The notes under the pieces: generated by a model
The model's input: the letters and a program-made list of their open reading frames with translations, nothing else
Told to the model about the DNA's origin: nothing
The model's database searches: none
NCBI GenBank assembly: GCA_963726455.1
Contig: CAVSCK010000004.1
Coordinates: 1,472,001-1,536,000, forward strand
Origin: an uncultured bacterium
GTDB lineage: Bacteria > Zixibacteria > MSB-5A5 > CAIYYT01
Direction of reading: 5' to 3'
Length of the DNA: 64,000 bases
Made by a program: the position numbers and the translations under genes
Part shown: positions 5,086-53,575 of the stretch, piece by piece
How positions within the stretch are numbered: the first letter of the stretch is position 1
Layout: each line of letters starts with the position of its first letter

Positions 5086-5125
5086 CTATAAGAGTGGTGT
5101 GACTAACGTGAATCCGTCTCTCAAC

Positions 5126-8719: not shown

Positions 8720-8729
8720 TGCACCTCAC

Positions 8730-12892: not shown

Positions 12893-12910
12893 TTGTGAAG
12901 ATTTTCACAT
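12893..12910. promoter_or_regulatory. Rex/CRP-type palindromic operator upstream of hemA
   Basis: TTGTGAA-gatt-TTCACAT. Confidence 0.7.
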
Positions 12911-12914
12911 CTTA

Positions 12915-12930
12915 TGACAATCACGTGACA
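12915..12930 (+). promoter_or_regulatory. HemR-type direct-repeat box (OmpR/PhoB family)
   Basis: TGACA-atcacg-TGACA, a TGACA-N6-TGACA repeat upstream of hemA; the operon encodes an OmpR-family regulator. Confidence 0.7.
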
Positions 12931-12984
12931 ATCGTAATCAACCCACTCCTATTTTCTGGGCAAGTTTATGGAGATCAAACAATC

Positions 12985-18183: not shown

Positions 18184-18205
18184 AGCAACGAGCAGTGAGA
18201 CGAAC

Positions 18206-19564: not shown

Positions 19565-20277
19565 GCAAACGCATTCTTGTCGTCGAGGACGAAGAACATA
19601 TCGCCGACGGGCTGGCTATGAATCTCGAAGCCGAGGGCTACGAAGTCGTGGTCTGCGGCGACGGCAACGCTGCGCTCGATTACTACCGGAAAGGTTTTCT
19701 CGACTTGATCATTCTCGACATCATGATTCCCGGCAAGGACGGCCTCGCCGTCTGCCGCGAAATCCGGCAGAGTGGCGGACGCGTTCCGATTCTCTTTCTC
19801 ACGGCGCGTGACCGGCAGTCCGATCGCGTCGAGGGTTTCCTGACCGGCGGCGACGACTACATGACCAAACCGTTCGATTTGCAGGAACTGCTTCTGCGCG
19901 TAGCTGCCATCTTCCGTCGGCAGGTCTGGTACGGCACCGTCGAACGCGAGGAATCGCGCTACGACTGGCACGAGAATTGGATAAATTTCAAAAGCTATCT
20001 CGCGCACGGTCCCGGAGGTGAGGTCGAATTATCTCAGAAGGAATGCATGACCATGAAATTCCTGGTCGAGCATCACGACGAGGTCGTCTCTCGCGACATG
20101 ATTCTCGACGCCGTCTGGGGCTACCATGTCTACCCATCGAGCCGCACGATTGACAACTTCATCGTACGACTGCGCAAAATATTCGAGCCCGATCCTACCG
20201 TGCCGCGATACATCCATACCCTGCGCGGTGTCGGCTACAAATTCACACCCGGCGGAGAGACCGATGCCTCATTATAA
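19561..20277 (+). CDS. OmpR/PhoB-family response regulator (HemR-like)
   Basis: VVEDE, LDIMIP, TA, KPF receiver motifs; winged-helix RTIDNFIVRLRK...HTLRGVGY. Confidence 0.93.
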   Translation: MSKRILVVEDEEHIADGLAMNLEAEGYEVVVCGDGNAALDYYRKGFLDLIILDIMIPGKDGLAVCREIRQSGGRVPILFLTARDRQSDRVEGFLTGGDDYMTKPFDLQELLLRVAAIFRRQVWYGTVEREESRYDWHENWINFKSYLAHGPGGEVELSQKECMTMKFLVEHHDEVVSRDMILDAVWGYHVYPSSRTIDNFIVRLRKIFEPDPTVPRYIHTLRGVGYKFTPGGETDASL

Positions 20278-21286
20278 TTTCATCGCCGCTGCGCTGCGGC
20301 AACCGCACGAGACCGTGCCCATTTGGGTCATGCGCCAGGCCGGCCGATACTTGCCCGAGTACCGCGCCGTTCGCAGTCGGGCGTCGTTTCTCGATCTGTG
20401 CCATCAGCCCGACTTGATGACCGAAGTCTCCCTGCAACCGATCGACATTTTCGGCTTTGACGCCGCAATCTTCTTTTCCGACATCCTGATTCCTTTGGCG
20501 CCGCTCGGCATTTCGGTCACTTTCCCGAACGGCCCGCCGCGACTCGAACCGCCGTTACGCAGTCCTGCCGACATCGACAAATTGAAACCGTACGATATCA
20601 AGTCCGAGCTTTCGTTTGCACTCGCCGGGATCCGGCAAATTCGCACCAAACTTGATGGACGCGTGCCGTTGATCGGTTTCTGCGGATCACCTTTCACGCT
20701 CCTCTGTTACCTTGTCGAGGGTGGCGGCTCGAAAGATTTCACCGAGACCAAGAAGTTCATCTTCACGTATCCTGATGCTGCCACGCGATTGTTGACCCTT
20801 CTCGCTGATCTGGTCGGCGAATATCTCTCGCATCAGATTGCGGCCGGTGCGCAGGCAGTTCAGGTATTCGACACCTGGGGCGGAATATTGTCGCCGGCTG
20901 ATTACCGCCGCTTCAGTCTGCCCTTTGTGCAACGCGTTTTCGATCGCTGCCACACCAAAGGCGTGCCGCGCATCCTGTATCTGGGCAATACGGCCTGCTA
21001 TCTCAATCTGCTCGCCGATCTCCACTGCGAAGTGATTTCGATTGACTGGCGCACTGACTTGACGGCGGCAAAAGCTGCACTGCCCAACCAGGCAATCCAG
21101 GGCAATCTTGATCCCAACATTCTCTTCGCTCCAACGTCAGTAGTTATTGACGAGGCCCGTCGTATTCTTGAGATTATGCGCGACCGCGACGGCTTTATTT
21201 TCAACCTTGGCCACGGCATCTTACCGCAAACACCGGTTGACAACGTACATGCGCTGGTGGATACGGTTCACTCATTTCGGAGATAA
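20264..21286 (+). CDS. hemE: Uroporphyrinogen decarboxylase
   Basis: PIWVMRQAGRYLPEYR, FSDIL, QGNLDP, FNLGHG; ATG at 20264 after GGAGAG. Confidence 0.97.
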   Translation: MPHYNFIAAALRQPHETVPIWVMRQAGRYLPEYRAVRSRASFLDLCHQPDLMTEVSLQPIDIFGFDAAIFFSDILIPLAPLGISVTFPNGPPRLEPPLRSPADIDKLKPYDIKSELSFALAGIRQIRTKLDGRVPLIGFCGSPFTLLCYLVEGGGSKDFTETKKFIFTYPDAATRLLTLLADLVGEYLSHQIAAGAQAVQVFDTWGGILSPADYRRFSLPFVQRVFDRCHTKGVPRILYLGNTACYLNLLADLHCEVISIDWRTDLTAAKAALPNQAIQGNLDPNILFAPTSVVIDEARRILEIMRDRDGFIFNLGHGILPQTPVDNVHALVDTVHSFRR

Positions 21287-21288
21287 TC

Positions 21289-22674
21289 ATGAAGGAATTG
21301 AATTCTACTTTCGAACTTCTGAAAAAATACGATAAGCCCGGTCCGCGCTATACTTCCTATCCCACGGCTCCCGAATTTCGGCATGACTTCACCACTGTTG
21401 ATTATACCGATGCTCTCACCCGTGCCGGCAAGAACGTCGATTCACCTCTTTCACTGTATGTTCACATTCCTTTTTGCGCCCAGCGCTGCCACTTCTGCGG
21501 TTGCACGACTGTCATTACGCACAGCGAAGAATCCGTCAACAAATATCTCGCCGCTCTCGATATCGAACTGACAAACATCAGCAAGCATCTCGGATCGCGC
21601 CGGCAATTACTGCAACTCCATTGGGGCGGCGGCACGCCGACTCATTTGAATGTAGCGCAAATCGAGCAACTCTTCCGTCAAATCACCGATCGCTTTTCGA
21701 TTCTTCCCGATGCCGAGGTTGCCATCGAGGTTGACCCGCGCGTTACGTCCGATCAGCAAATCGAAAAACTCCGCGCTCTCGGCTTCAATCGCCTCAGCAT
21801 GGGAATTCAGGACTTCACCAAAGTCGTGCAGGCCGCTATCGGTCGCTGGCAGACTTTGAACCAGAGTGAGGCGCTCTATCGTTCCTGCCGCGCCCTCGGC
21901 TATCGCGGCCTCAATATGGATTTGATCTACGGCCTGCCGAAACAGACAGTCCCTGATTTTGCGCGATCTATTGACCATGTCATCCGCATGCGTCCCGACC
22001 GAGTGGCCGTTTACAGCTATGCCTATTTACCGGCACAGCGCTCCAATCAGAAATTGATCAGCCCGTCCTGGCTGCCGACTCTCGAGGACAAATTCCGGCT
22101 CTTCGCCACGGCCGTCGACAAATTCCTGGACGCCGGCTACATCCAAATCGGCATGGACCATTTTGCCTTGCCTGACGACGAATTGGCGATCGCCCTGTCA
22201 CAGCAGACGTTGCACCGCAATTTCATGGGTTATACCACTAAACCCGCTGCTGACATGATCGGCCTTGGCATGTCCGCCATCGGTGACCTCGCCGCCTGCT
22301 ATGCACAGAATATTTCGCGCATCGGCTCTTATCATGCCGCCATCGAGGAGAAAGGCCTCGCGACCTACCGTGGCTATCACCTTTCGCAGGATGATCTCAT
22401 CCGCCGCCGCCTGATTACATTCCTCATGTGCAATTTCATTCTGCCGTTCGATTTGATTAAGCGCGAATTTGGCGTCGACTACTTCGAGTATTTCCGCGCC
22501 GAGGATGCCCAACTCGACCAGTTCATCACCGACGGTTTGCTGCTGCGGCGTCCCGATGCTCTCGAAATTACTCCCGCAGGGCGCATCTTCATTCGCAATA
22601 TCGCGATGGTCTTCGATGCCTATCTGCATCGCGCGGACAAACCGGGACAGCACACTTTCTCGCGCACGATCTGA
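21289..22674 (+). CDS. hemN: Oxygen-independent coproporphyrinogen III oxidase (radical SAM)
   Basis: GPRYTSYPTA, HIPFCAQRCHFCGC, HWGGGTP, IGMDHFA, HRNFMGY, C-terminal FSRTI. Confidence 0.97.
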   Translation: MKELNSTFELLKKYDKPGPRYTSYPTAPEFRHDFTTVDYTDALTRAGKNVDSPLSLYVHIPFCAQRCHFCGCTTVITHSEESVNKYLAALDIELTNISKHLGSRRQLLQLHWGGGTPTHLNVAQIEQLFRQITDRFSILPDAEVAIEVDPRVTSDQQIEKLRALGFNRLSMGIQDFTKVVQAAIGRWQTLNQSEALYRSCRALGYRGLNMDLIYGLPKQTVPDFARSIDHVIRMRPDRVAVYSYAYLPAQRSNQKLISPSWLPTLEDKFRLFATAVDKFLDAGYIQIGMDHFALPDDELAIALSQQTLHRNFMGYTTKPAADMIGLGMSAIGDLAACYAQNISRIGSYHAAIEEKGLATYRGYHLSQDDLIRRRLITFLMCNFILPFDLIKREFGVDYFEYFRAEDAQLDQFITDGLLLRRPDALEITPAGRIFIRNIAMVFDAYLHRADKPGQHTFSRTI

Positions 22675-22678
22675 GATA

Positions 22679-23703
22679 ATGGCTACCGCGCTCGAACGAA
22701 TTCAGGCAGTCACCGGGAACAGACCGCAGTTCGATCCGGCGCGGGAAATCTGGGGTGTGCTGTTCGTCAATATGGGTGGCCCCGAAAAAACGGAAGAGAT
22801 CAGACCCTATCTTTACAACATCTTCTCCGACCGCGCGGTTATTAACTTCCCGTTGGCGCCTCTCTTGCAGAAGCCAATGGCTCGTCTGATCTCGACACTT
22901 TCGCGCAAAAAGAGTCGCTGCACGTTACAATCTGATTGGCGGCGGTTCACCCCTGTTGAGTTATGATCGCAAGCTGGCTGACGGCGTTAAGCAAATCCTG
23001 ATACGCGAATTCTGCAACATCCGAGTCTATGTCGGCATGCGCTATATCGCAGCCCTTCATCGAAAGCCAGCTACAAGCAGCAATTTCCGATGGTTGCATG
23101 CACCTGCTGGTATTTCCCATGTATCCGCAATACTGTCTGGCAACCACCGGCACCGCTTTCGACGCCATCACTCGCTACCTTGCCGATCATTCGAGAGCAT
23201 TGTCGCTCGATGCAATACCTGACTATTATGAATCTGCCGGATACATTGCATTACTGCGCAAACGTATTGAGCAGGCATTCGCTAGGACACAAGCTGGCTC
23301 GAAAACACGTCTATTGTTCTCTGCTCATTCAGTCCCTGAAAGTATCCGCGCGGGCGGTGATCCTTACGTCAACCAGGTAACTCACACTTGCGATCTCGCC
23401 GGACGCGGTTATGATTATATGCTTTCCTTTCAATCAGCGACCGGCCCGGTGAAATGGGTCGGACCCGACACCTTGCAAACAATCGACAAGCTCGCCATCG
23501 AGGGTATCGAGCAACTCATAGTCGTACCGGTCAGCTTTGTGTCGGACAACATTGAGACGCTTTACGACATCGATATTGTCATGCAGGAACGTTGCCGTCA
23601 ACTTGGAATGAAACCGCTGATCCGCACCACCATGTTCAATGGCGAACCCGACTTCGCCGAATTCATCGCCGGCCTTGTCCGCGAGAGGATACGCACCACA
23701 TGA
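22679..23703 (+). CDS. hemH: Ferrochelatase, split by two +1 frameshifts (~22900, ~23046)
   Basis: NMGGP, RYNLIGGGSPL, GMRY, PMYPQY, LFSAHSVP, GDPY, FQS, FVSDNIETLYDID are spread over three successive frames. Confidence 0.9.
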
Positions 23704-25097
23704 CTGTCGATCACGAGACTCCGCGTATTGCGATCATCGGTGGCGGCATTTCCGGTTTGGCGTCGCTGCACTTTCTCAAACGCAAGCTTGGTGGACGCGC
23801 ACGGATTCGCCTGTTCGAGGCAGACTCACGGCTGGGCGGTACCATCGGCTCCGACCGCGTTGATGGTTATGTCTGTGACTGGGGGCCTAACGGCTTTCTC
23901 GATCGTGTCCCCTTGACTTTGCAGCTTGTCGATGAAATCGGCCTGCGGGACAAACTTCGTCCCGCTGATCCCCAGGCCGATAATCGTTTCATTTACCGGC
24001 ATGGCCGTCTGCATGCCATCAGCGCTTCCCCGATCAAGTTCATGACATCGCGGTTGCTGTCATTGCCAGGACGGTTGCGTGTGACGATGGAACCTTTGAT
24101 CAAAGCCAGACGCGACGGCGCCGACGAATCCGTGTTTGATTTTGCCGCGCGGCGTATCGGTCGCGAAGCCGCCGAGGCCATGATCGATCCCATGGTCTCC
24201 GGCATCTTCGGTGGTGATGCCAAAGCCGTTTCGCTCAAATCCTGTTTCCCTGTAATGGAGGAAATGGAACGCAATTACGGCTCCCTCTTCAAAGCGATGA
24301 TCGCCAAAAAGAAGTCAGGCAAGAACGCCGGACCTGCCGGACCTTCGGGACGGCTGACCTCGTTCAACAACGGTCTCTTTACGCTTGTCGAGCGCTTCTA
24401 CGAACTATACTCTGAACACATTCAGACCGGCACTCCGACCACAAATATCACTCGAACGCCCACCGGATATCATCTCGAATTTGGCAACGGCAGTTCCGAC
24501 ACCTTTGACGGCGTGATTATCGCAACCCCGGCCTATGTTGCCGCACATTTGTTGAAACGCTCTGATGAATCGGTCTCCGATCTGCTCAGCCAAATTCCCT
24601 ATGCGTCACTTGCCGTCTGTTGCTTCGGTTATCGCGACGACAAACGCGCGCAGGAACTCGATGGCTTCGGATTTCTTGTTCCCCGTAACGAGGGCAAACG
24701 AATTCTCGGCTCGATCTGGACATCGTCGATCTTCCGCGATCAGGCGCCAACCGGAGAAGTTCTGCTGCGCACAATGGTCGGCGGCTACACCGACCCCGAT
24801 GCCGTGCATCTTGACGACAAGGATCTGATCGCATTAGTTCACGGCGAGCTTAGCCAGATACTCGGCCTGCAAACGCAACCTGCCTTTGTGCGAATCTTTC
24901 GCTATGACAAGGGTATCCCCCAATTCATTCTGGGCCACAATGACCGGCTCCGGCAAATCGCGACACGCCTCGAATCTCTCCCCGGAATCTATCTTGCCAG
25001 CAATGCCTATTCCGGCATCGGCCTGAACGATTGCGTCACCCGCGCCGATGAAGTCACCACCGCTCTCGTTCAGCATCTCGCCTGCCCGAAGACCTAA
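23700..25097 (+). CDS. hemY: FAD-dependent protoporphyrinogen oxidase (HemY type)
   Basis: IIGGGISGL, RLGGTI, GPNGF, DGFGFLVP, IPQF, GIGLNDC; ATGA overlap with the hemH stop. Confidence 0.95.
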   Translation: MTVDHETPRIAIIGGGISGLASLHFLKRKLGGRARIRLFEADSRLGGTIGSDRVDGYVCDWGPNGFLDRVPLTLQLVDEIGLRDKLRPADPQADNRFIYRHGRLHAISASPIKFMTSRLLSLPGRLRVTMEPLIKARRDGADESVFDFAARRIGREAAEAMIDPMVSGIFGGDAKAVSLKSCFPVMEEMERNYGSLFKAMIAKKKSGKNAGPAGPSGRLTSFNNGLFTLVERFYELYSEHIQTGTPTTNITRTPTGYHLEFGNGSSDTFDGVIIATPAYVAAHLLKRSDESVSDLLSQIPYASLAVCCFGYRDDKRAQELDGFGFLVPRNEGKRILGSIWTSSIFRDQAPTGEVLLRTMVGGYTDPDAVHLDDKDLIALVHGELSQILGLQTQPAFVRIFRYDKGIPQFILGHNDRLRQIATRLESLPGIYLASNAYSGIGLNDCVTRADEVTTALVQHLACPKT

Positions 25098-25178: not shown

Positions 25179-26003
25179 GTGCATAACAGGGTACTCCTCT
25201 ATTCTGCAGCGGCAGTGGCATTCGTGGCACTGCTCTTTCTTGGCGCCGGCCTGGGCAACAGCATTGCCTTCACCAACTTAAATCATCCCCACCGCTCTGT
25301 CGGCTGCAAGAATTGCCACGGGTTTCAAACGCGAGAGGCCGCCTCGGATTCGCTTCAAGGTCAGAAACCGGCCGCGACCGCCCAATGCCTTGAATGCCAT
25401 GCCACCGACCTGCAAAAACCCGGTTTCGCGCAGCTTTTCCACCAGCGTGGCGAGGATTGTGAACGCTGCCACAGCTTCCACAATCCGCAAGTGCTTGTGA
25501 TAAATGGAGACTCCACCGACATCGAGGTAGCCACAGCCGAGCTCTACCAATGTAGTGACTGCCACCAGACTACCACTCTCCCCGAAGTTAGTGCGGGACA
25601 TCAGGAAGCGGCGAAACTTCTGCACGGTGACACCAGGGGATTATTCCGCACCGATCCCAGCGCCTTCTGCCTGGCCTGCCACGATTACGGTGCCGTTCCG
25701 CAGGTTACGTCGAATTTAAGGCCTCCCCAGTTGCACATGGAGGCCAGTCATCCTTACGACATCAGGATCATCCCCGGCTATCGGCGCGCTGGGTCCTCCC
25801 TGAAACTGCAGGATCAGCTTGACCCAATGTACCGGCTGGTCGACGAGAAAATGACCTGTATCACCTGCCATTCCCTGGCCTCAACTAATGCCCAACTTGT
25901 GGTGGCCACAATCGACAAAGGCCTCTGCACCGGTTGCCATGATATGCAGCGTCCCGATGGCTCCTTCGCCGCCCTGTCTCTTCACAAGCAGGTCAATAAC
26001 TAG
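25179..26003 (+). CDS. 7-heme cytochrome c with N-terminal signal or anchor
   Basis: CKNCH, CLECH, CERCH, CSDCH, CLACH, CITCH, CTGCH. Confidence 0.88.
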   Translation: MHNRVLLYSAAAVAFVALLFLGAGLGNSIAFTNLNHPHRSVGCKNCHGFQTREAASDSLQGQKPAATAQCLECHATDLQKPGFAQLFHQRGEDCERCHSFHNPQVLVINGDSTDIEVATAELYQCSDCHQTTTLPEVSAGHQEAAKLLHGDTRGLFRTDPSAFCLACHDYGAVPQVTSNLRPPQLHMEASHPYDIRIIPGYRRAGSSLKLQDQLDPMYRLVDEKMTCITCHSLASTNAQLVVATIDKGLCTGCHDMQRPDGSFAALSLHKQVNN

Positions 26004-26477: not shown

Positions 26478-26501
26478 GGAAACCCGCCGGTAATCACCCA
26501 A

Positions 26502-27629
26502 ATGATGAATCAACTGCGCAGTCCGCACGAAAGACAACTCCTACGCTTCGGCTCTTCCTGTTTCACGAAGCTGCTCGTCCTATCTCTCCTAGTTCTCGCC
26601 GCTCTCTCTGCGACTACTCCGCTCTTCGCTCAGGGCAACGGCCGTTTAGTGCTGCCGGCACAGTTCGTTCGCGAACTTACTCCTCCCGGTGACGGTGGCA
26701 GCTTCCTTCGTCCCGACAAGATTTTCCTCGATAACCGTTTCAACGAAGTCTTTGTGTCCGACCCGGGATACAATCGGATCGTTGTCTTTGATACCTCCGG
26801 CCTGTACAAATTCGAATTTTCCGGCAACCAGATTTTCGGCACCGCTGATGACATTGTGGTAGACTCCGACGGCTACATTTATGTTCTGGGTTCGACCGCC
26901 GCGGGCAAGAACATCTTTGTTTTCGATTACGACGGCCTCTACCTCAAGAAGCTGGAGTTGACCGGCCTGCCCGCCGGGCAAACATTGGAAATCGATCATC
27001 TCATAATCGATGAAACCAGCACCTTCTACACGATCGACGAAGCCAAAGCGCTGGTGACTTCATTGGGCACCGACGGCGTCCTGAAAAATCAATTCCCGAT
27101 CCTGGCTGATCTCACTGACAAACTGCGGCAGGAAGCCCTCTACGGCACGCCGCAGGTTTACGGCGGCGCCATCTACATCCCGGTTTCTACCGAGGGCTCG
27201 GTGTACGTCTACGATCTCTCCGGCAACTATATTTCCAACATCGGCGTTCAGGGCACTGACGCCGGTTCGCTTAACTTCCCCGTTGCCGTCGCTGTTGCCG
27301 ACGGTGGACAAATACTCACCGTACTGGATAAACATCGCTATGTCGTCGTTTGCTACACGCTGGACGGCAAGTTCATCGGCGAGTACGGCGGCATGGGATT
27401 TAGTCTGGGCTGGTTCTACCATCCGGGCGCTTTCGCCCTCGACAAGTTCAATCGTGCCTACATCAGCCAGGTGTATCTGAATCGTGTGCAAGTCTGTGCG
27501 CTGCCCGATGCCATCATTCAGAAAGCAAAGTCACTGAACATAAAGAGTTCTCAAACACAAACTTCACCACAAAAGCTTGAAACAATGCTTAGAGAGGAGG
27601 TGATCGGGCAAATCACCGAAATCCATTGA
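26502..27629 (+). CDS. Exported NHL-repeat six-bladed beta-propeller (OscD-like)
   Basis: Signal peptide; NHL repeats (FLRPDKI...VFVSDPGYNRIVVFD, LNFPVAVAV, FYHPGAFALD); immediately upstream of the omcS-like gene. Confidence 0.85.
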   Translation: MMNQLRSPHERQLLRFGSSCFTKLLVLSLLVLAALSATTPLFAQGNGRLVLPAQFVRELTPPGDGGSFLRPDKIFLDNRFNEVFVSDPGYNRIVVFDTSGLYKFEFSGNQIFGTADDIVVDSDGYIYVLGSTAAGKNIFVFDYDGLYLKKLELTGLPAGQTLEIDHLIIDETSTFYTIDEAKALVTSLGTDGVLKNQFPILADLTDKLRQEALYGTPQVYGGAIYIPVSTEGSVYVYDLSGNYISNIGVQGTDAGSLNFPVAVAVADGGQILTVLDKHRYVVVCYTLDGKFIGEYGGMGFSLGWFYHPGAFALDKFNRAYISQVYLNRVQVCALPDAIIQKAKSLNIKSSQTQTSPQKLETMLREEVIGQITEIH

Positions 27630-27673
27630 TGATGTTAACTCTAATACCTTGTGAGTGTTTTTGGAGGTTTTCT

Positions 27674-28741
27674 ATGCGTAAGGTTCTTCTCATTGCCATC
27701 TGCTTCGCCGTAGCGCTGTTTTTCAGCGGCGTAGCCTATGGTTTCCATGACGAAGGCGTGGCGCGCTGCAGTGGTTGTCATACCATGCACAACAGCCAGA
27801 ATGGCACTGCGGTAGACACCACAACCGGCCATGAAAACGGTAACGAATACCTGTTGATCAAGGCCAAGCCGTCTGACGTCTGCTTGTCATGCCACGGTGC
27901 CGAACGCGGCGCCGTATTTGGCACCGATCCGTTGGCTCCCCCGGCCGAAAAGGGCCCGGGTAACTTTGTTTTCCTTCTGGAGAACAACATTTATGATGGC
28001 CGCACTGGCACCGTCACCGGCGACGCCGCCGGTCACAACGTCGATGCCCCGTCCAGAGGCGTCGGTCCGGACGCTACCCTGAGCTCCGCCCCGGGTGGAA
28101 CTTTCCCGGCCAGTGCTATGGGTTGCTCCTCCTGCCATGATCCGCATGGCAACCAGAACTATCGTCTTCTGTATGGCGCCGGTGGCGTTGTGCAGGATGG
28201 TATCGCCACGTTCACCAGTGCTGCTCCGACCGCCGAAGGTCTTGGTTTCAGCGCCGCTGCTGAAAGCAACACCAACCACGTCGCCTACAAGGGTGGCTTC
28301 AGCGCTTGGTGCGGAAACTGCCACGGCAATTTCCATCAGGAAGCAGGCGGCAGACTTGAGCATCCGTCCGGCGAAGGCTTGGGCGGCACGATTTCCGGTA
28401 ACTATGGTCGTTACAATGGTACTGCCCATTACAACAGTGGTACTCCGGCGACCTCGTATCTGGCAGCGGTCCCGTTTGAGGATGCAGCCAATACCACCAC
28501 CTCGACTGCCGGCCCGACGGCCTCCAGCCAGGTGTCTTGCATCACCTGCCACAGAGCACATGCCACCTCAGCTCCGGATGCCGGCCGCTGGGACTTCAAT
28601 GTGACCTGGCTCTCTGACGACGGTGTTCGCTCCGGTTCCTATGCTATTCCAAATCCGTACGGTCCCGACGTGGAAATTCAGCGCTCGCTGTGCAACAAGT
28701 GCCACGTGAAGGATGCCGGCGACGTTGGAAGCAATCCGTAA
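27674..28741 (+). CDS. omcS: OmcS-like hexaheme cytochrome (nanowire subunit)
   Basis: GGAGG RBS and signal peptide. Mature N-terminus FHDEGVARCSGCHTMHNS, then GHNV, APGGTFP, CSSCHDPHG, WCGNCH, HPSG, VPFE, CITCHRAHA and terminal QRSLCNKCHVKD, matching my recall of OmcS. Six CxxCH. Confidence 0.9.
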   Translation: MRKVLLIAICFAVALFFSGVAYGFHDEGVARCSGCHTMHNSQNGTAVDTTTGHENGNEYLLIKAKPSDVCLSCHGAERGAVFGTDPLAPPAEKGPGNFVFLLENNIYDGRTGTVTGDAAGHNVDAPSRGVGPDATLSSAPGGTFPASAMGCSSCHDPHGNQNYRLLYGAGGVVQDGIATFTSAAPTAEGLGFSAAAESNTNHVAYKGGFSAWCGNCHGNFHQEAGGRLEHPSGEGLGGTISGNYGRYNGTAHYNSGTPATSYLAAVPFEDAANTTTSTAGPTASSQVSCITCHRAHATSAPDAGRWDFNVTWLSDDGVRSGSYAIPNPYGPDVEIQRSLCNKCHVKDAGDVGSNP

Positions 28742-28801
28742 TCGGATCTTGTGATACAAGCTGTTGAGTTGATACCCCTTATCAGCAACTACAGTGAAAA
28801 G

Positions 28802-28834
28802 CAAAACGCCCGACTGACAAAGCCGGGCGTTTTG
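28802..28834 (+). terminator. Intrinsic terminator or stabilising hairpin after omcS
   Basis: caaaacgcccg...cgggcgttttg, perfect 11-bp stem. Confidence 0.7.
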
Positions 28835-28854
28835 ATTAAATTAATCAGTAAGAA

Positions 28855-30963
28855 ATGAGACAATATTTGTCGCCATACAGACCGATAGCCATATTTGTCC
28901 GCCTTGTCGTCTGCCTGATTGCCCTGTTCCTCGCAGGAATCAGTTCTGCCGTGGCAGGAATTTCGCCCAACCTTTCCGGCACGATCAATGTGTCAGGCGT
29001 AAATTCGCTGTCCGACACACTGCACGAACAGAGTCTCAGCCAGCAGTACGCTATCTACTGGCAAAAGAATCTCTTCCCCTATGTGATGTTGCGCACCTCG
29101 GTTACTTACTTCAATTATGGCCTGAACCAAAACATCGGCGCGAATAGTTGGCGCAAAGAGTTTTCTCCGGTAGCGGAGCTGACGTGGAAGCATCCGTACT
29201 TTAGTCTATCCGGTTCGGCGCAACGCCGCCAGACCAGCAGTAACGACATGCTCACCAACCTGAACAACGATTTTCTGACTGCGAGTCTGCGCACGCGATT
29301 GGCAAATTATCCTTACATCAATGCCCAGTTTCAGCAAAGCGATATCTACAACCGCCCCGATCGCCGTGAGCGCGACACGCGGAACCGTTCGCTGATAGCC
29401 GCGACCGGCTACAGTACGCGAAGCTCGAATGCTTCTTATTCGTTTTCGCTTCGCAACACAATCAACCGCCTGGATCAACGACAACAGAAAGATTATCAGC
29501 ATTCGGTACGGCTGAATCATACCCGCAATCTGGTCGGGAAAGCAGTAAGAACAAGCGTTGGATATTCGCTGGATTATCGCACCCAGCATGATATCACTCC
29601 GGCTGCCAGCATTCTTCCTCGCGAGATCCCCGGGTTGAACGGCCTGTATGCCAACGATGCAACGCCCGACTTGGGCGCGCTTGATAGCATTACATCTTTG
29701 GCAGATGGAAATACTGCCTTACCAACGACGCCTCCGATCGATATCGGCAACGGCAACGTCAACTGGAACCTGGGCGCTGACCTCGGCGCCACGCAGACAG
29801 TCAATAAGATCTATGTCTACACCGACCGTCCCTCCGGCAATGGAGTGCGCTGGGAAGTCTTCAGGTCGGCCGACAATATCGTCTGGAATCAGGTGACGGG
29901 ATCAACGTCATTCTTCAATATCAGTTTCAGCCGCTACGAAATCAGTTTTCCCAGCGACACTACTCGCCTTATCAAGGCCGTAAATTCCGGCCTCAATGAA
30001 GTTCCGACGGTTTTTGTGACTGAACTCGAAGCGCTGGTCGAAATCGGGAACCAGCCCGATATCAAACGGGAGCAAACCATTCATCAGGCAAATTTGAATA
30101 ATACTTTTCTCTTGTCATCCAAACTTACGGCCGGTGCCGATGTCTACTTGCGCCGTGAATCGGGCAGAAGTTTGTCCGTGTTACGAAATGAGACCGATTA
30201 CGCCGCCAGCACGAGATTCAAGTTTTCCGAGGCATTACAGAACGGTGTTCGCTACGAAATCGACCTGATCAACTTTGAAAAAGGCACCCCCGATGTCGAT
30301 AAGACGTCTTCGGTGGCCTATGATCTGCAGTACAGACCAATGGAGACTCTCGCTTTTCTCTTGTCCGCAGCCAGCCGTCACAGCTATATTGGTCCGATGA
30401 AGTCCCAGGAACTCAATAATGCCATTCTGCGGGCGCTTGGCGACCCCTTCGTTCGCTTGCACATCGCGACTGAGGTTGGATACTCAGGCAACAATCTCTA
30501 CGCGGGGAATCTCAGATATAACACCTTCGTCTATAACATGTCAGTCACCGGCGGAATCTTCAGGTTCCTGGACGCCGGCGTGACTTATGGCTATCAGCAT
30601 ACTGACGACGTCAGAAACGCCTTGATACGGACCAAGAACCAATATTCCCTGCTCGTGACCTATCGGATGACGCGCCATATTCTGATGCAGGGAAACGTTG
30701 ATCTGACCCATGACTTCAACAATCGCTACATTTCCCAGGAATACCTGGTAAGCTGGACGGCCTCTCCCAAGCTCAGTCTTTCCGGTTCCGCCTATTTGAC
30801 CGAGCAGTACGGCGCTTCGCGAACCGATAGATACAATGCCCAGCTTCAATATTATGTCACCGCGCGCACGTCGCTGTTGGTGATGTATACCGAGTATGAT
30901 CTGACTCCCACTCTCGGCAATCGCACTGCCGCCATACAGGCCGGTATCAGGACTTCTTTTTGA
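28855..30963 (+). CDS. Outer-membrane beta-barrel with an inserted discoidin (F5/8 type C)-like domain (OscE-like)
   Basis: Signal peptide, amphipathic Tyr-rich strands, C-terminal Phe (AGIRTSF). Central segment LADGN...LGADLG...VNKIYVY...SADNIVW...RLIKAV...VTELEA. Confidence 0.75.
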   Translation: MRQYLSPYRPIAIFVRLVVCLIALFLAGISSAVAGISPNLSGTINVSGVNSLSDTLHEQSLSQQYAIYWQKNLFPYVMLRTSVTYFNYGLNQNIGANSWRKEFSPVAELTWKHPYFSLSGSAQRRQTSSNDMLTNLNNDFLTASLRTRLANYPYINAQFQQSDIYNRPDRRERDTRNRSLIAATGYSTRSSNASYSFSLRNTINRLDQRQQKDYQHSVRLNHTRNLVGKAVRTSVGYSLDYRTQHDITPAASILPREIPGLNGLYANDATPDLGALDSITSLADGNTALPTTPPIDIGNGNVNWNLGADLGATQTVNKIYVYTDRPSGNGVRWEVFRSADNIVWNQVTGSTSFFNISFSRYEISFPSDTTRLIKAVNSGLNEVPTVFVTELEALVEIGNQPDIKREQTIHQANLNNTFLLSSKLTAGADVYLRRESGRSLSVLRNETDYAASTRFKFSEALQNGVRYEIDLINFEKGTPDVDKTSSVAYDLQYRPMETLAFLLSAASRHSYIGPMKSQELNNAILRALGDPFVRLHIATEVGYSGNNLYAGNLRYNTFVYNMSVTGGIFRFLDAGVTYGYQHTDDVRNALIRTKNQYSLLVTYRMTRHILMQGNVDLTHDFNNRYISQEYLVSWTASPKLSLSGSAYLTEQYGASRTDRYNAQLQYYVTARTSLLVMYTEYDLTPTLGNRTAAIQAGIRTSF

Positions 30964-30986
30964 TTCCGAGTGAAAGGTTTTACATA

Positions 30987-31562
30987 ATGCGTTTTACAGC
31001 CCTGCGGTCAATTTCAATACTAACTCTGCTGTTACTCCTGGTCGCCTGTTCTGGAATGGGGCCGACGGTCTTCGTCAACAAGCAGTACAATTTTAACTTC
31101 CTCGAAAAAGTTGCCGTGGTACCGTTCGAGAACCTCTCCTCCGATCAGGGCGCCGGGGCACGCATCACCCACATTTTCCTCACGGAGCTTTTGTCCACCG
31201 AGTCATTCGATGTGGTCGAGCCGGGGGAAGTGTCCAAAGCCGTCCAGAAATTTGGCGGCGGCGGAACGGCCAGTCTGACCAAAGATCAGATCGTGGAGGT
31301 CGGCAAGACTCTGGGAGTGCAGGGGATTATCCTTGGCTCCGTGAACGAATCGGCCGGCACGCGCGCCGGATCCTCACCTACTACCGAAATTACCATCAAC
31401 GCCAGAATGGTGGAGACCGAAACCGGCCAGACTATTTGGTCGGCTACGAATACTGAGGGCGGACGCGGCTTCTGGGCATCGCTCTTTGGCACCGGCGACA
31501 AGTCGGAAAGCCAATCCACCCGCAAGTGCGTCAAGCGGATCATTAAGACACTGGTCAAGTAG
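30987..31562 (+). CDS. Lipoprotein, CsgG/LpoB/DUF799-like fold (OscF-like)
   Basis: Lipobox LLVA-C; KVAVVPFEN...GKTLGVQGIILGSV...ARMVETETGQTIW. Confidence 0.8.
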   Translation: MRFTALRSISILTLLLLLVACSGMGPTVFVNKQYNFNFLEKVAVVPFENLSSDQGAGARITHIFLTELLSTESFDVVEPGEVSKAVQKFGGGGTASLTKDQIVEVGKTLGVQGIILGSVNESAGTRAGSSPTTEITINARMVETETGQTIWSATNTEGGRGFWASLFGTGDKSESQSTRKCVKRIIKTLVK

Positions 31563-31569
31563 CCACGCG

Positions 31570-32694
31570 ATGACTGCCTCCATAGTTCGCCGGATATTTC
31601 TCGTTGCCGCGTTGCCGGTTATTTCGATGATCCTCGGGGTATTCTCTTTGCCATCTGATCTCAGCGCCGCTGCGCGCATAGGAATCCTGCCGTTCGGCAA
31701 TTACACCAATACCAACTCAGCACCCGATTCGCTGACACCCCTGATCCAGGAGCAATTGACTTCGCGCGGGTTTGTGGCGGTATCGCACGACAGCATCCGC
31801 AATTTCATGCGCCACCAGCGCCTCAGAACGATGGGTATGGTTTCCTCCAAAGAGACCGAATTGCTGCGCGACAACCTCAGTTTGGATTACTTGATCACGG
31901 GCTCGCTGGACTTCTACGCGGCACAGGCCAATCCCGAAGTAGGACTTTCCGTTCGGGTAATTGATTGTCACTCGCTGGCAATCGTGTGGGCGGCGAGTCA
32001 TTCCGCCACCGGCGAGGATTACGCGGGAATGTTCGGCGCGGGCAGAATTTCATCACTATCAAAACTGTCGGAACGAGTGATTGACGATCTCTTCAAGTCG
32101 TTTCCGTTGGACAAGGATCTCACTGCCAGGTCGGGCGATCCCTGGCGGCATGGAGCAAAAGAGTCGCAGAAAGAACGCATAGCGATTGTCCCCTTCGATA
32201 ATGTGTCGGGCTACTTTCATGCAGGTGAAATTGCGAACGGCCTTCTTATCTCCAGGTTATGCGAAGATGGCTTTCAAATTCTGGAACCGGGAGACGTAGC
32301 GGCAGTGCTGGCGGACCTGCGTTCCACTCCGCGCGGCAAGGTGTCGTCTCTAGAGATAGCACAGCTTCGGGACAAACTTAATGCGACTGTCATTCTCACC
32401 GGAGCAGTATATGGTTTCGCCGTGGCCGGAGGAGCTGAGACCGGCGCCCAGGTCGAAATTGGTATGCGCTTAATTGATGCTGCTACTGGAAAAGTGGTTG
32501 CCTCCACGACCTCGGTTAAGAAGGAAGCCGATACCGAAACCATATTCGGCGCCGGCAGAGAATATTCACTTGGAAAATTGACGTCGGAAAGTCTAGAGTC
32601 CGCCTGGAAGTCTCTGCAAAAAGACAGGGCAAAGCATACGTCATTGGCTAATCACCCCGGCACGGAAGGCGACACCACAAATGGTAACCGCTAG
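31570..32694 (+). CDS. Exported protein with two tandem CsgG-like domains (OscG-like)
   Basis: Signal peptide; repeated pattern RIGILPFGN...ITGS...RVIDC and RIAIVPFDN...LTGAV...RLIDAATGKVV. Confidence 0.78.
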   Translation: MTASIVRRIFLVAALPVISMILGVFSLPSDLSAAARIGILPFGNYTNTNSAPDSLTPLIQEQLTSRGFVAVSHDSIRNFMRHQRLRTMGMVSSKETELLRDNLSLDYLITGSLDFYAAQANPEVGLSVRVIDCHSLAIVWAASHSATGEDYAGMFGAGRISSLSKLSERVIDDLFKSFPLDKDLTARSGDPWRHGAKESQKERIAIVPFDNVSGYFHAGEIANGLLISRLCEDGFQILEPGDVAAVLADLRSTPRGKVSSLEIAQLRDKLNATVILTGAVYGFAVAGGAETGAQVEIGMRLIDAATGKVVASTTSVKKEADTETIFGAGREYSLGKLTSESLESAWKSLQKDRAKHTSLANHPGTEGDTTNGNR

Positions 32695-34351
32695 ACCCAC
32701 TATAGCTTCTTTCTTAGCATTCATCGTCTGCTCATTGCTGTGGCTGACCCCGCGATTGGCAGTGGCTGCCTCGGTGGACAAACCGTCCTGCCTCGTTATC
32801 GTCAATGGTGATTCCATCACGACTGCAACTTTCGAGGCATCGTTCAGTAATATCCACGCAACGATGTCGACCCGCGAAAAGGAGACTTTCGATTACCGTA
32901 AGCTGCTGAACAAGCTGGTCAACGATCGCTTGCTGGTGCAGGAAGCCGAGTCGATGAAGATGGATCAGGAAAGCAGCGTGACGAAGTTGCTCGAAAAGCG
33001 CCGCAAGGAATATGCGGTCGCGGCATACATCAAATCCTCGTTCGTACCCAAAGATTCGGTCACTGATGCGGAAGTGCACAAATTCTTCATGGCTAATTTC
33101 GGCAAGAAGCAGTTGCGCACGGTTGCAGTCGAAACGAAAGAGAAGGCATCCGAGTTGATGGCCAGGATTCGCAAGGGCGCGGACATGGACAGCATCGCCC
33201 AGGCCGTTTCACTTGACATGTACAAATACCACGGCGGCTTGCGCTCACCAGCTTATGACATCGCGCTTGAGTCTGAATTCAAGCCGATTGTTTCCAAGCT
33301 GAAAGTTCACGAGCTTGCCGGGCCGGTCGCATATCGCAAGTCGTTTGCCTTCGTGCGGCTCGAACAGGCGACACCACCCGACACTGCCGACCTTCCCAAA
33401 GTGAAAGATTCGATCGTTCGGGATCTCAAGACTCAGAAACAGAATCAATCCTGGCAGGCGTTTCTGACCGATTTACGTTCCAAGTCTGCTATAGTTGTCG
33501 ACAGCGCGCTGCTAAGCACCATCAGACGCACCCAGGATGTTGCTCTCGATTCAACATTCATGAAGGGTAGCAGCAAACCGGTCGCGACGATTGCTTCCCG
33601 TGACACGATTACCGATTTCGATTTGCGGCAGCGAATCGCGCATCTGCGCATGGCGGCAAATACTCAGGCGATGGATTCGCTGGCGCGCCAAACGCTGGAT
33701 GAATCGATCAACGAGATCGTCCTCTTCCGCGCCGCCGAAACTGCAGGGTTCACGGAGAAGTCACAGGTGCTGAGCAAACTGGCATCCACGCGAGATAGTG
33801 TTTTGATCGAAATGTATCTCAAGGAGACCGTGGTTTCGCGGATCAAGTTTAACCATCAGGAATTCACGGACTACTATAACGCCCATCTTGAGGACTTCCG
33901 CGAACCCGCAGAGTACAATCTCAAGGAAATCATGGTCAATCGCCGGGATCTTGCCGACAGTATCGTGGGGCTAGTGCACGATGGCGCCGATTTCAATTTT
34001 GTCGCCCGCAAGTTGCTGGCCGGCAAATCAGATGTCGATGAGGTCGACAAGTGGATGTCACTCGGAGCTTTCCCACAAGCGATTCAGGACGATCTGTCGG
34101 AGCTGCCGACGGGCAGCATCACCAAGCCCTACCAGACTTCCGACGGTTGGGTGATTTTCAAGATCAAAGAGCGCCGACCGGGCAAGATCAAAGAACAGAG
34201 TGAAGCCGATATGCAGATACGCGATATCATGTTTCAGCAGAAATTCGATGAGTCGCTGGATAAGATTTTGAATACATTGAAGAAGAATTCGCAGATCGTC
34301 TATTTCGATAATGCGATAAACGCGTTCCTTGGCAAGACAACGTCCAAGTAA
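32681..34351 (+). CDS. SurA/PrsA-like periplasmic chaperone with two parvulin domains (OscH-like)
   Basis: VIVNGDSIT, LNKLVNDRLLVQEA, GADMDSIAQAVS, GADFNFVAR, ITKPYQTSDGWVIFK. Confidence 0.85.
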   Translation: MVTARPTIASFLAFIVCSLLWLTPRLAVAASVDKPSCLVIVNGDSITTATFEASFSNIHATMSTREKETFDYRKLLNKLVNDRLLVQEAESMKMDQESSVTKLLEKRRKEYAVAAYIKSSFVPKDSVTDAEVHKFFMANFGKKQLRTVAVETKEKASELMARIRKGADMDSIAQAVSLDMYKYHGGLRSPAYDIALESEFKPIVSKLKVHELAGPVAYRKSFAFVRLEQATPPDTADLPKVKDSIVRDLKTQKQNQSWQAFLTDLRSKSAIVVDSALLSTIRRTQDVALDSTFMKGSSKPVATIASRDTITDFDLRQRIAHLRMAANTQAMDSLARQTLDESINEIVLFRAAETAGFTEKSQVLSKLASTRDSVLIEMYLKETVVSRIKFNHQEFTDYYNAHLEDFREPAEYNLKEIMVNRRDLADSIVGLVHDGADFNFVARKLLAGKSDVDEVDKWMSLGAFPQAIQDDLSELPTGSITKPYQTSDGWVIFKIKERRPGKIKEQSEADMQIRDIMFQQKFDESLDKILNTLKKNSQIVYFDNAINAFLGKTTSK

Positions 34352-34382
34352 TAGGAAATTGGTTCAGGGAAGAAACTTCGTC

Positions 34383-36378
34383 ATGCCGCAACTGATCAAA
34401 TCACGCAAGTTTATCTCACTACTCTCCGCATCTGCGTTGATGGCAATGTTCGTACTGCTACTCAGTTACACCTCAGACAGTCAGGCGCAGGTCAAACGCG
34501 GCAAACGTTTTTCCACCGAAGGCAATTGCCTCGACTGCCATAAGCTGGATCAGTTCAAGGGCAAGGTTAAACACAAACCCTTCGGCGATAAGGATTGTCA
34601 GGCGTGCCACAAACCGCACGGCCTCGTGGGAATGTTGCGGCTCAAAGAAGACGGCGCGGCACTCTGTTTCCTCTGCCACGACAAGGTGAAACTTGGCCTG
34701 GAGCGCGCCAATGTGCACGATCCCGCGAAGAAAGGTGACTGCAAGATTTGCCACGATTCGCACGCCTCGGACGAACCGGGTTTGTTGAAAGCCAAATCTG
34801 AGGAACTCTGTTTCACTTGCCACGATCGCACGGAGTTCGAGGGCAAAATTGTTCACCAGCCGATGAAGCAAAGTTGTTTTGCCTGCCATGAGGTTCATGG
34901 GAGCGACCATGTGGCTCTGCTAAAGAAAGACAAAAACGATCTCTGCAATGATTGCCATAATACGTCCGAGCCGGCGTTTGCCAAGGCGCACGCCGATTAT
35001 CCGGTGGCCAAGTCAGATTGCTCAATGTGCCATTCTTCGCATTCATCGGATGAACCTAAGTTGTTGACGAAATCGATACATGCGCCGGTAGCCGCAGGCG
35101 AATGCCAGACTTGTCATACTGTCCCGAGCGACACGACCTTTGCCGTGCAGGGCGACCCGCAGCAACTCTGCGTAACCTGCCACGACCTGGCCGAGATCGC
35201 GCCCGAAGGCACGCATCCGCCGGTAGCCGCCGGCGAATGCCTCACGTGCCACAATCCGCACGGATCAAAAGAGAAGTCACTCTTGGTGAAATCGGAAAAG
35301 GAACTGTGCCTCGATTGCCACAGCGACGTTTCCAACGAGTTGATTCAGGCCTCGACGCACAAGCCCGCGCAGGAAGATTGCGCGATCTGCCATAAGGCGC
35401 ACGGCAAGACTGATTCCAAGTTGCTGACCAAAGATGTCAATACGTTATGTCTCGACTGCCACGCCGAACAGAAAGCAGCTCTGGCCGACGCCGACGTGCA
35501 TCCGCCCTTTTCTGACGGCGTCTGCACCGACTGTCACCGTCCGCACGGAACACCGGAACCGAAATTGGTCAAGAGCAATACCTCTGAACTCTGCGCGTCA
35601 TGCCACGACGACGTCAACAAATGGATCACGCAGAAGAGCGCGCATCAGCCGGTCAAGGCAGGACAGTGCGTCAAATGCCACAATCCGCATGCCTCACCAC
35701 AAGCCCAAGTTGTTGGTCGCCGAGAACAATGCGTTGTGTGAGAATTGCCACAGTGCTTTGACGGCAGACAGCACCAACACCGTGATTCATCCGCCGTTCG
35801 GCGAAAAGCAGTGCAACACCTGCCATGTGCCGCATGCGTCCGACTACACGCCATTGTTGGCATCAGCCCAGGGAGAACTCTGCGGTGGATGTCATTCCGA
35901 CATTCCGGGCGACTCGACCAAATTCGTCAGCGAACACAAGCCGGTTGCCGAGGGCAATTGCTCCGGCTGCCACAGTCCGCACGCCGGCAAACTCGCCAAG
36001 TTGCTTTTGGATAAACAACCCCGGCTCTGCCTGAATTGCCATACTGATATCGGCGACCTGATGAAGAAAGCCAACGTGCATCCGCCTGCCGTGGAGGAAT
36101 GCACCGGCTGCCACAAGCCGCATACCAGCGAAGTGAAAACGCTTTTGGCCGAGAATGTGCCGGCAATGTGCCTCGCCTGTCACGATGGCGAAGACGCGTC
36201 ATTCAAAAGCAAGCATCTTGGCTTGAGCGGTTCGCAGATCGACTGCCGCAAGTGTCACGATCCGCATGCGTCAGAGGACAAGCGGATGATACTTCCGAAA
36301 GAGCACGACCCGTTTGCCAACGGCGCCTGTGATGCCTGCCACACTGATGTTCCCCAGCCGGAAGGAGAGAAAAAGTGA
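34383..36378 (+). CDS. 26-heme cytochrome c (paired CxxCH repeats), one +1 frameshift at ~35705
   Basis: 17 CxxCH before and 9 after the shift; removing one C restores the repeat NPHASPQAKLL. Confidence 0.88.
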
Positions 36379-37604
36379 AGAATACAATGATGTCTCTCGC
36401 GGCTCTTCTCCTGATCTTTGCGGCGTCAAGTTTCGCGCAGGCAGTCAAAGTCAATCAGCCGGAAGTCTGTTTTAATTGCCATTCCGAGATCAGTGACCTC
36501 AACGCCAAGAAGCATGTGCACACGGCGTTCAAGTCGGGACAGTGCTCGTCATGCCATAGTCCGCATGCGGCTCGCCACGAAAAGCTTCTCGCCGAAAGTC
36601 CCGGCGCGTTGTGCCTTGGTTGCCATACTGATGTCAAGAAGTTGGTCACGAGTCCGTCGCCGCATGTGCCGGCTGCTAGTGGCGAGTGTCTCAAATGCCA
36701 TGATCCGCACGCATCCGACAATGCCAGTCAGCTTAAGCAGCCGATGACCGCGCTGTGCACAACCTGCCATCCCGTGATCAATGACTGGTTCAAGCGCGCG
36801 AATATCCATCAGCCGGTGGAAACGAAGCAGTGCATGAAGTGCCACAATCCGCACGGCACCGGCAACAGTGGCCTGCTTGTCAACAATGTGCCGACACTCT
36901 GCTTCGGCTGCCACCAGCAGAATCAGACCTTCCAGACCGTGCATAAGGGTTACAACCTGAGCAAGGCCGACTGCACGATGTGTCACGATCCGCATTCGTC
37001 CGGCTCCAAGGGTCTCTTGATGGCGAATCAACACGCGCCGTTCAAGGGCGGTCGCTGCAGCGCCTGCCATTCCGCCGGCGCCGAGTCGGGTGGTTCATTC
37101 GCGATCGCGGGAAGTATCAAGAACGTTTGCCTGAAATGCCATGCGGGAATCACTGCGGATGCCAAGTTGGAATTCCATCCACACGTCAACGATGAACGTT
37201 CATGTATCAACTGTCATAATCCGCACGCCTCGAACGGCACGTCGCTGTTGGCGTCGGATCAAAAGAATCTCTGCCTGAAATGCCACTTCAATAATCCGGC
37301 TCCGGGAAAAGACAAGAGCGCCTACATCACGCACAACGGCCAGGATTGCACGACTTGCCATCGTCCGCACGGCGCCGACAACAAACGGCTCTTCAAGATG
37401 GCGGACCTCGACCTGTGCCGCAGTTGCCATCCCGATGTTCACAAGGGCTCGCATCCGATGGCGCCTGATCCCAAAGCGATCGATCCGCGCACGAAACAGC
37501 CAGTCACCTGCATCAGTTGCCACAAGCTGCATGGCTCCGACTTCAAGCCATACCTGCCGCTCAGTTCCGACGGCGACCTCTGCGTCCAGTGCCATAAGAA
37601 GTAG
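36375..37604 (+). CDS. 16-heme cytochrome c (paired CxxCH repeats)
   Basis: Signal peptide, 16 CxxCH counted, GGAG RBS, overlaps the upstream stop. Confidence 0.92.
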   Translation: MKNTMMSLAALLLIFAASSFAQAVKVNQPEVCFNCHSEISDLNAKKHVHTAFKSGQCSSCHSPHAARHEKLLAESPGALCLGCHTDVKKLVTSPSPHVPAASGECLKCHDPHASDNASQLKQPMTALCTTCHPVINDWFKRANIHQPVETKQCMKCHNPHGTGNSGLLVNNVPTLCFGCHQQNQTFQTVHKGYNLSKADCTMCHDPHSSGSKGLLMANQHAPFKGGRCSACHSAGAESGGSFAIAGSIKNVCLKCHAGITADAKLEFHPHVNDERSCINCHNPHASNGTSLLASDQKNLCLKCHFNNPAPGKDKSAYITHNGQDCTTCHRPHGADNKRLFKMADLDLCRSCHPDVHKGSHPMAPDPKAIDPRTKQPVTCISCHKLHGSDFKPYLPLSSDGDLCVQCHKK

Positions 37605-53555: not shown

Positions 53556-53575
53556 CCGTCACCGGGGCGCCCAGA

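Follow-up and report, generated by a model that had tools for sequence, protein, structure and literature searches.

This work concerns a gene for a multihaem cytochrome of the OmcS type, and the genes around it, on a contig of an uncultured bacterium. The window, i.e. the whole stretch of DNA that was analysed, comprises 64,000 nucleotides (nt), and the gene is followed in it by genes for a large outer-membrane barrel, two proteins of the LpoB/CsgG type, a peptidyl-prolyl isomerase (PPIase) chaperone and two large cytochromes (Table 1). A first-pass annotation, made from the letters of the sequence, had described it as a compact OmcS-type nanowire gene in a context unlike that of Geobacter. 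The gene is genuine and well conserved, belongs to the OmcS family and lies in an osc-like cluster of a Zixibacteria genome. We regard its product as a good candidate for a conductive protein filament, though one with precedents.

Table 1. Features of the cytochrome cluster and its upstream neighbours, in window positions (aa, amino acids; ORF, open reading frame; AF2, AlphaFold2).
Feature	Position	Strand	Basis and remarks
274-aa multihaem cytochrome, 7 CXXCH	25179..26003	+	Pfam Cytochrome_C7 / Paired_CXXCH; upstream of the cluster
375-aa NHL / six-bladed beta-propeller, signal peptide	26502..27629	+	Pfam DUF5128, E 4.7e-14; directly upstream of the OmcS-like gene
OmcS-family hexahaem cytochrome	27674..28741	+	355-aa precursor; 23-aa signal peptide; 332-aa mature chain starting FH
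GC-rich hairpin, 14-bp stem	28802..28834	.	terminator scan; within the 113 nt that separate the OmcS-like gene from the barrel gene
702-aa outer-membrane beta-barrel, OscE position	28855..30963	+	hhalign, AF2, structural match in the PDB; inserted central domain at about residues 254-397
200-aa LpoB/CsgG-like lipoprotein (LVAC lipobox), OscF position	30960..31562	+	Pfam LpoB
Two-domain CsgG/LpoB-like protein, OscG position	31486..32694	+	Pfam CsgG; ORF listed from TTG 31486
556-aa SurA-like double PPIase chaperone, OscH position	32681..34351	+	Pfam Rotamase_2 / SurA_N
26-haem cytochrome (OscI / GSU2495-like), two frames	34329..36375	+	haem count, orthologues
409-aa cytochrome, 16 CXXCH (OscJ / GSU2494-like)	36375..37604	+	haem count

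The product of the OmcS-like gene contains exactly six CXXCH motifs, and the motif count for CX3CH and CX4CH is zero. Compared by phmmer with all chains of the Protein Data Bank (PDB), it matched one distinct sequence only, OmcS (6ef8/6nef, 407 aa), with an E-value of 9.9e-37 and in two stretches spanning query residues 24-316. Query residue 24 is aligned with residue 1 of the OmcS chain and the alignment runs without gaps through FHDEGVARCSGCHTMHNS / FHSGGVAECEGCHTMHNS. From this register follow the length of the signal peptide, that of the mature chain and the equivalence of precursor His39 with mature His16. The C-terminal block QRSLCNKCHVKD is aligned with the last CXXCH of Geobacter-type sequences. 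Six haems, the OmcS signature blocks, a histidine at mature position 16 and a mature chain of about 332 residues against about 407 had all been noticed in the first-pass annotation, and each agrees with the alignment (355 minus 23 gives 332 residues, compared with 407 in the PDB chain). Searches of Pfam and NCBIfam with the 355-aa protein gave generic multihaem matches only, and neither collection holds a model for OmcS. That the gene encodes a member of the OmcS family we consider practically certain.

To describe the haem ligands we used an alignment of 48 sequences, comprising the window protein, its paralogue in the same genome, 17 database homologues, 26 genes from loci of species-representative genomes and three Geobacter-type sequences of a Geobacteraceae metagenome-assembled genome (MAG). 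The histidines H25, H36, H74, H121, H155, H158, H217, H230, H293, H296 and H344 are invariant in it, and H39, the mature His16, is retained in at least 90% of the sequences. The six histidines of the CXXCH motifs and six further conserved ones (H25, H39, H121, H158, H230, H296) add up to twelve, which by sequence would be the number of ligands needed by six bis-His haems. The putative distal ligands, on whose alignment with OmcS the first-pass annotation had made its reading depend, are conserved at all six positions.

His16 is of particular interest, as we take it to be the inter-subunit ligand of OmcS. The pattern CXXCHxxH near the N terminus is found in 119 of the 120 closest database homologues, the same number as possess six CXXCH motifs. 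One Geobacteraceae paralogue (L105:17074-18411) has lost the histidine at this position, which argues that it is not kept by default. According to the available passages of Filman et al. (2019), OmcS has twelve histidine ligands, eleven from its own chain and one from the neighbouring subunit on haem 505.

The fold points to the same protein. An AlphaFold2 monomer model computed from the alignment is of moderate quality and mostly coil (predicted local distance difference test, pLDDT, 71.1; predicted template modelling score, pTM, 0.72). In a Foldseek search against the PDB it gave a single significant match, 6ef8_A (E 1.8e-15; template modelling (TM) scores TMq 0.66 and TMt 0.58), the next one being OmcE with an E-value of 5.6. 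The alignments to OmcS that had been proposed earlier as checks, one by sequence and one by structure, thus both recover it. A dimer prediction with two copies of mature residues 24-355 and four haems scored 0.01 compared to a mark of 0.42; it was made without controls and weighs neither way.

The genes downstream of the cytochrome were compared with a Geobacter-type reference, the cluster of the Geobacteraceae MAG (L105). Its order is an OmcS-type hexahaem cytochrome, a 4-haem cytochrome, a second hexahaem cytochrome, a YncE-type propeller, a 767-aa protein without Pfam match and a 198-aa LpoB-like lipoprotein, continued by a 431-aa protein, a 591-aa PPIase, the 26-haem and 16-haem cytochromes, an NHL protein and a third hexahaem cytochrome. 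The letters E to H of the Osc names were mapped onto this MAG from the order of locus tags in citing passages. In such passages a block of this type, GSU2500-GSU2493, is tied to the maturation and secretion of nanowires, with proposed roles of OscH in folding, of OscE, OscF and OscG in secretion and of OscD in morphology, and GSU2495 is said there to carry 26 haems.

Gene by gene the correspondence is as follows. The 200-aa lipoprotein is 35% identical to its 198-aa Geobacteraceae counterpart over 181 aa (E 3e-34), both halves of the two-domain protein are collinear with the 431-aa protein (E 2e-9 and 4e-9), and the PPIases of 556 and 591 aa align over 523 aa (E 5e-16). The large cytochromes have 17+9 and 16 haems in the window and 26 and 16 in the Geobacteraceae MAG. 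For the barrel the relation is a distant one: direct BLASTP between the 702-aa and the 767-aa protein was not significant, and a protein search for the 702-aa barrel in four Geobacter-type genomes found nothing. Profile comparison with hhalign, starting from a family of 39 sequences, connects the two with a probability of 99.6% (E 2.6e-24, 668 columns), and an intermediate sequence (L079) matches both. That the cluster is osc-like, i.e. made of the companions of OmcS, is in our judgement nearly as secure as the family membership itself. The context is therefore not unlike that of Geobacter as had been stated; the adjoining genes are homologues of the osc block in the Geobacter order.

The barrel itself gave no match in Pfam or NCBIfam. 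Its AF2 model (pLDDT 90.1) is all-beta with about 28 long strands and an inserted central domain, and in 33 of the 39 family members the C terminus is Phe or Leu. The inserted domain is conserved and holds the sole invariant residues of the family, W344 and E390, together with many near-invariant ones. The best match of the model in the PDB is MtrB of the Mtr complex (6r2q_B, E 2e-10, TM 0.43-0.46), followed by TonB-dependent receptors and pilus ushers. As the 26-haem and 16-haem cytochromes are encoded alongside, the barrel could be understood as an MtrB-like porin-cytochrome sheath around a large multihaem cytochrome, with the OmcS-like protein as its periplasmic or surface partner. We consider this improbable: the TM scores are low and those of receptors and ushers are nearly equal, so that the match says "large barrel" and little more, and the homology of the barrel is with the gene at the OscE position of Geobacter, for which the passages cited propose a role in secretion.

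The arrangement is not restricted to this genome. Related loci numbered 80, and in 65 of them the sequence continues for 6.5 kb or more past the OmcS-like gene. Thirty-six of the 65 have homologues of E, F, G and H behind it in this order; the remaining 29 are orphans or are arranged otherwise. The NHL propeller lies directly upstream of the OmcS-like gene in 52 of the 71 loci with enough flank. The syntenic loci are labelled Zixibacteria, Krumholzibacteria, Eisenbacteria, Acidobacteriota (Polarisedimenticolia, Thermoanaerobaculia), Calditrichaeota, Fibrobacteria and others.

Among the defining osc features that were tested, the OscD-type propeller is the one that was not found. With 113 nt between the OmcS-like gene and the barrel there is no room for such a gene in the window, and 23 of the 36 syntenic loci have a gap of at most 1 kb at this place and likewise no room. 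The other 13 (L005, L009, L011, L018, L019, L022, L023, L024, L030, L034, L035, L037 and L054, three of them from the phylum of the host) have a gene there, with a gap of more than 1 kb; the seven of these genes that were read are ORFs of about 470-520 aa and contain no haem motifs. The one gap gene that was tested, from L034, is a full-length homologue of the YncE-like propeller at the OscD position of the Geobacter type (24% identity over 458 aa, E 4e-28). The NHL propeller upstream of the OmcS-like gene was considered as a counterpart of the YncE-type propeller and rejected, since a sequence comparison found no relation; it is weakly similar to the NHL protein ending the Geobacteraceae cluster (E 5e-6).

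The failure to find a good OscD-type homologue in the genome and the state of the 26-haem gene might suggest that the cluster is decaying and the OmcS-like gene a remnant without a pathway. In this assembly the 26-haem gene is split by a frameshift near 35697-35709 into a part with 17 haems (34323-35696) and one with nine (35710-36372); in five loci (L003, L004, L010, L012, L081) the orthologous ORF is undivided, with 689-694 aa and 26 CXXCH. Essential genes, however, are split as well. The ferrochelatase of the window is divided between the ORFs 22469-22966 (profile positions 3-55) and 23029-23703 (positions 95-316), and rpoB, elsewhere in the genome (G000:C4:919343-923111), matches in two frames. 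Taken together, the three cases suggest that the assembly contains erroneous indels, rather than that the genes are decaying. All other genes of the cluster are intact and of full length compared to their relatives, and an OscD-type gene also has no place in the 23 syntenic relatives with a short gap. Decay appears very improbable to us, more so than the porin-cytochrome arrangement.

Two smaller features of the cluster may be added. The two-domain protein likely starts at ATG 31570, 8 nt past the previous stop codon. The hairpin behind the OmcS-like gene may be an attenuating terminator that could keep the transcripts of the machinery below those of the subunit; the region shows no excess of terminator-like sites as a class (12 observed, 14.5 expected). 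A search of the whole window with Rfam gave zero matches, and a search for sequencing runs over 26500-31000 listed none, nor any holder of RNA data.

The chain is shorter than that of OmcS. The first-pass annotation had spoken of apparently trimmed loops, and the difference of about 75 aa is due to a few discrete indels. Relative to the Geobacter type about 35 aa are absent after residue 161, just past the third haem motif and its DPH, 21 aa after residue 321, before the C-terminal motif, about 11 aa after residue 269, and 5 aa each after residues 80 and 84. Whether loops were trimmed on one side or gained on the other is a matter of direction, which the unrooted tree does not give. This tree, a quick maximum-likelihood tree of 68 sequences, separates 44 compact sequences by a branch with a support of 100 (Shimodaira-Hasegawa-like approximate likelihood ratio test, SH-aLRT). 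On the other side of the branch are all 23 sequences of at least 400 aa (Thermodesulfobacteriota, Myxococcota, Nitrospirota) and one sequence of 378 aa.

Rarity, as implied by the earlier description, does not apply. A database search gave 2062 proteins at E <=1e-5 among 7994 candidates scored, and the best 120 of the 2062 homologues have lengths of 317-398 aa (median 352); the nearest listed database protein is 86% identical to the window protein. Of 599 candidate stretches in species-representative genomes, 538 encode a relative. With members in many phyla and in hundreds of such genomes, the compact form makes up a large clade. In the host's own phylum of the Genome Taxonomy Database (GTDB) an OmcS-like gene with an E-value of 1e-20 or better occurs in 47 of 285 genomes (37 of the 198 of high quality), and in 15 of the 20 genomes of its family.

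The host was placed by its RNA polymerase subunit RpoB, in a pattern-based scan which is not an exhaustive ranking. RpoB is 76-80% identical to that of the L003 genome, 63-67% to those of three Zixibacteria-labelled MAGs and 53% to that of a fourth, and at most 55% to the matches from KSB1, Calditrichales, Gemmatimonadota and Bacteroidota. Four loci in the GTDB phylum of the host (L017, L005, L025 and L044, from G265, G196, G160 and G198) are labelled Zixibacteria or Zixiibacteriota, and three further MAGs of the phylum (L003, L034 and L054, i.e. G029, G044 and G052) carry the label "uncultured Ignavibacteria". Since the Zixibacteria-labelled loci coincide in contig coordinates with matches in the host's own phylum, the guess of a Zixibacteria host, offered earlier with reserve, is supported. 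The host does not belong to the Geobacterales.

The genome (3.64 Mb, 5 contigs) has a second OmcS-like gene. The first-pass annotation had counted one copy and no omcT-like paralogue, which is correct for the window, where tblastn with the 355-aa protein returned the gene itself and two weak matches to other multihaem genes (23% and 32% identity). It is not correct for the genome: about 950 kb away lies a copy with 60% identity (G000:C4:548709-549692; L197:9701-10780, minus strand). It retains the FH-type N terminus and His16. Genes for a response regulator, a DinB-family protein, a methyltransferase and a VIT1 transporter surround it, and its vicinity holds no osc genes. In the tree it falls into a different compact subclade, alongside other genes without a downstream E-F-G-H block.

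On these grounds a mechanism can be proposed. The hexahaem subunit would be exported by the Sec pathway and matured in the periplasm with the assistance of the SurA-like PPIase. It might then cross the outer membrane through a channel formed by the 702-aa barrel and the two LpoB/CsgG-like proteins. Outside the cell the subunits could polymerise head to tail, and His16 would supply the second histidine ligand of a haem in the adjacent subunit. The resulting continuous chain of haems would serve extracellular electron transfer and could receive its electrons from the large periplasmic cytochromes with 26 and 16 haems that the cluster encodes. The export route, the polymerisation, the conductivity and the direction of electron flow in this scheme are inferred. 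That the OmcS-like protein is the structural gene product of the osc-like cluster and truly forms a filament is, in our opinion, somewhat on the probable side.

Several points weigh against a filament. The compact clade is without four to five segments (35, 21, 11 and 5+5 aa) and the branch that parts it from every sequence of the long form has strong support. An OscD-type propeller was found neither in the cluster nor in the genome, where the best match has an E-value of 2e-7 and 20% identity, and the 26-haem gene is frameshifted as assembled. The N-terminal arm bearing His16 is poorly defined and of low confidence in the monomer model. Among the Geobacter paralogues only OmcS itself is known, from the passages cited, to form a wire, and OmcT, OmcJ and GSU2501 are not. 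The literature searched contained no filament, conductivity or localisation data for members of the compact clade; on OmcS in combination with Zixibacteria or candidate phyla, or on OmcS-like filaments, it consisted of metagenome surveys, tool papers and papers on Geobacter or related Desulfobacterota, with no structural or biochemical study of the compact form.

Because only OmcS among the Geobacter paralogues is known to polymerise and no study of a compact member was found in that literature, one has to keep in mind that the protein could be an OmcS-family hexahaem cytochrome, either secreted or on the outer surface, which acts as a monomer or small oligomer, as terminal reductase or as electron relay, and forms no long filament. 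OmcT, OmcJ and GSU2501 may be of this kind, and the separate clade with its missing segments and the lack of the OscD-type propeller would fit as well. We nevertheless regard it as unlikely, though as a competitor to be taken seriously. His16 has no obvious intramolecular need, as eleven ligands of its own chain serve OmcS, and it is still kept in nearly all of the close homologues, while a Geobacteraceae paralogue could lose it. In addition the full block for secretion and chaperoning is conserved across phyla.

A step further would be to see in the compact clade a second class of OmcS nanowires, with about 55 residues per haem instead of about 68, assembled without OscD in this lineage and used for mineral respiration or electron uptake in Zixibacteria and other sediment phyla. 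The compact form would then be the widespread and possibly the older one, and the Geobacter chain a loop-expanded version. This proposal is tentative and we think it rather doubtful as a whole; if it were true, the Geobacter model system would be the unusual case.

Part of the picture is already in print. Shen et al. (2025, Cell Chem Biol 32:239, PMC11845295) reportedly describe the osc machinery as widespread, with homologues of OmcS together with osc across bacteria. Metagenome surveys mention, as far as their accessible text goes, OmcS-type genes in subsurface communities including Zixibacteria, and FeGenie is described in the portion available as including an OmcS model. As no Pfam or NCBIfam model names the family, thousands of such genes stand as "hypothetical protein" in databases. 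If the compact subunit does polymerise, wires of the OmcS type would be in general use among uncultured phyla of sediments and the subsurface, Zixibacteria included, and not a speciality of Geobacter, and a smaller building block with denser haems might become available for protein electronics.

Other genes in the window are reported for completeness. Directly upstream of the cluster, at 12895-25097, lies a complete haem biosynthesis operon (hemA, hemC, hemD, hemB, hemL, a histidine kinase and a response regulator, hemE, hemN, hemH, hemY). This adjacency is not conserved, with a hemY homologue in 4 of 81 related loci and never beside the cluster; a homologue of the 7-haem cytochrome is present within the fetched flanks in 15 of the 81. 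At 7574-10881 on the minus strand consecutive genes encode a multihaem cytochrome c, an NrfD-type membrane subunit and a 4Fe-4S protein, which may constitute a quinol-linked module feeding electrons to periplasmic cytochromes. Right after the cytochrome cluster, at 37988-41591, lies what looks like a Hachiman-type defence pair, a HamA-domain protein (E 6.5e-61) and behind it an 845-aa DEAD/ResIII helicase; the G+C content is 0.48 there compared to about 0.54. The region 51273-54742 encodes an NAD-dependent epimerase/reductase (minus strand), a class I/II aminotransferase of the Spt/KBL type (plus strand) and a 388-aa protein without Pfam match (plus strand). These are presumably what had been called a ceramide trio, and a role in ceramide synthesis is plausible. 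At 58-7437 a bacterial alpha-2-macroglobulin (1675 aa) precedes a penicillin-binding protein of the PBP1C type, a usual pairing.

Compared with the known systems, the likeness to MtrB of the Shewanella MtrCAB complex is one of general design: both are very large outer-membrane barrels encoded beside multihaem cytochromes. The identity is 8% at the TM scores given above, the window barrel has its inserted central domain, and no relation at the sequence level was found. With the osc cluster of Geobacter the window shares the order of hexahaem cytochrome, barrel, LpoB-like lipoprotein, two-domain protein, PPIase, 26-haem and 16-haem cytochrome. It differs in that the YncE-type OscD propeller between cytochrome and barrel is lacking, that its NHL propeller precedes the cytochrome whereas that of the Geobacter type stands at the end of the block, that extra cytochromes of the OmcT or OscB type are lacking, and that a 7-haem cytochrome lies upstream.

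The subunit itself has in common with OmcS (GSU2504) the number and order of the CXXCH motifs (six), the mature start FH, the CxxCHTMHNS block with His16, all twelve axial histidine positions, the fold and a Sec signal peptide. It is 29% identical to OmcS in the structural alignment and 34-39% identical to the Geobacter-type sequences of the Geobacteraceae MAG, has 332 instead of 407 residues in its mature chain, and belongs to a Zixibacteria and not a Geobacterales host. The compact proteins of MAGs from Zixibacteria, Krumholzibacteriota, Eisenbacteria, Acidobacteriota, Calditrichota, Fibrobacterota and Gemmatimonadota, annotated as "hypothetical protein" or "CXXCH cytochrome family protein", do not differ from it in any substantive way: they are 60-86% identical over the full length and share its length, its motifs and its cluster.

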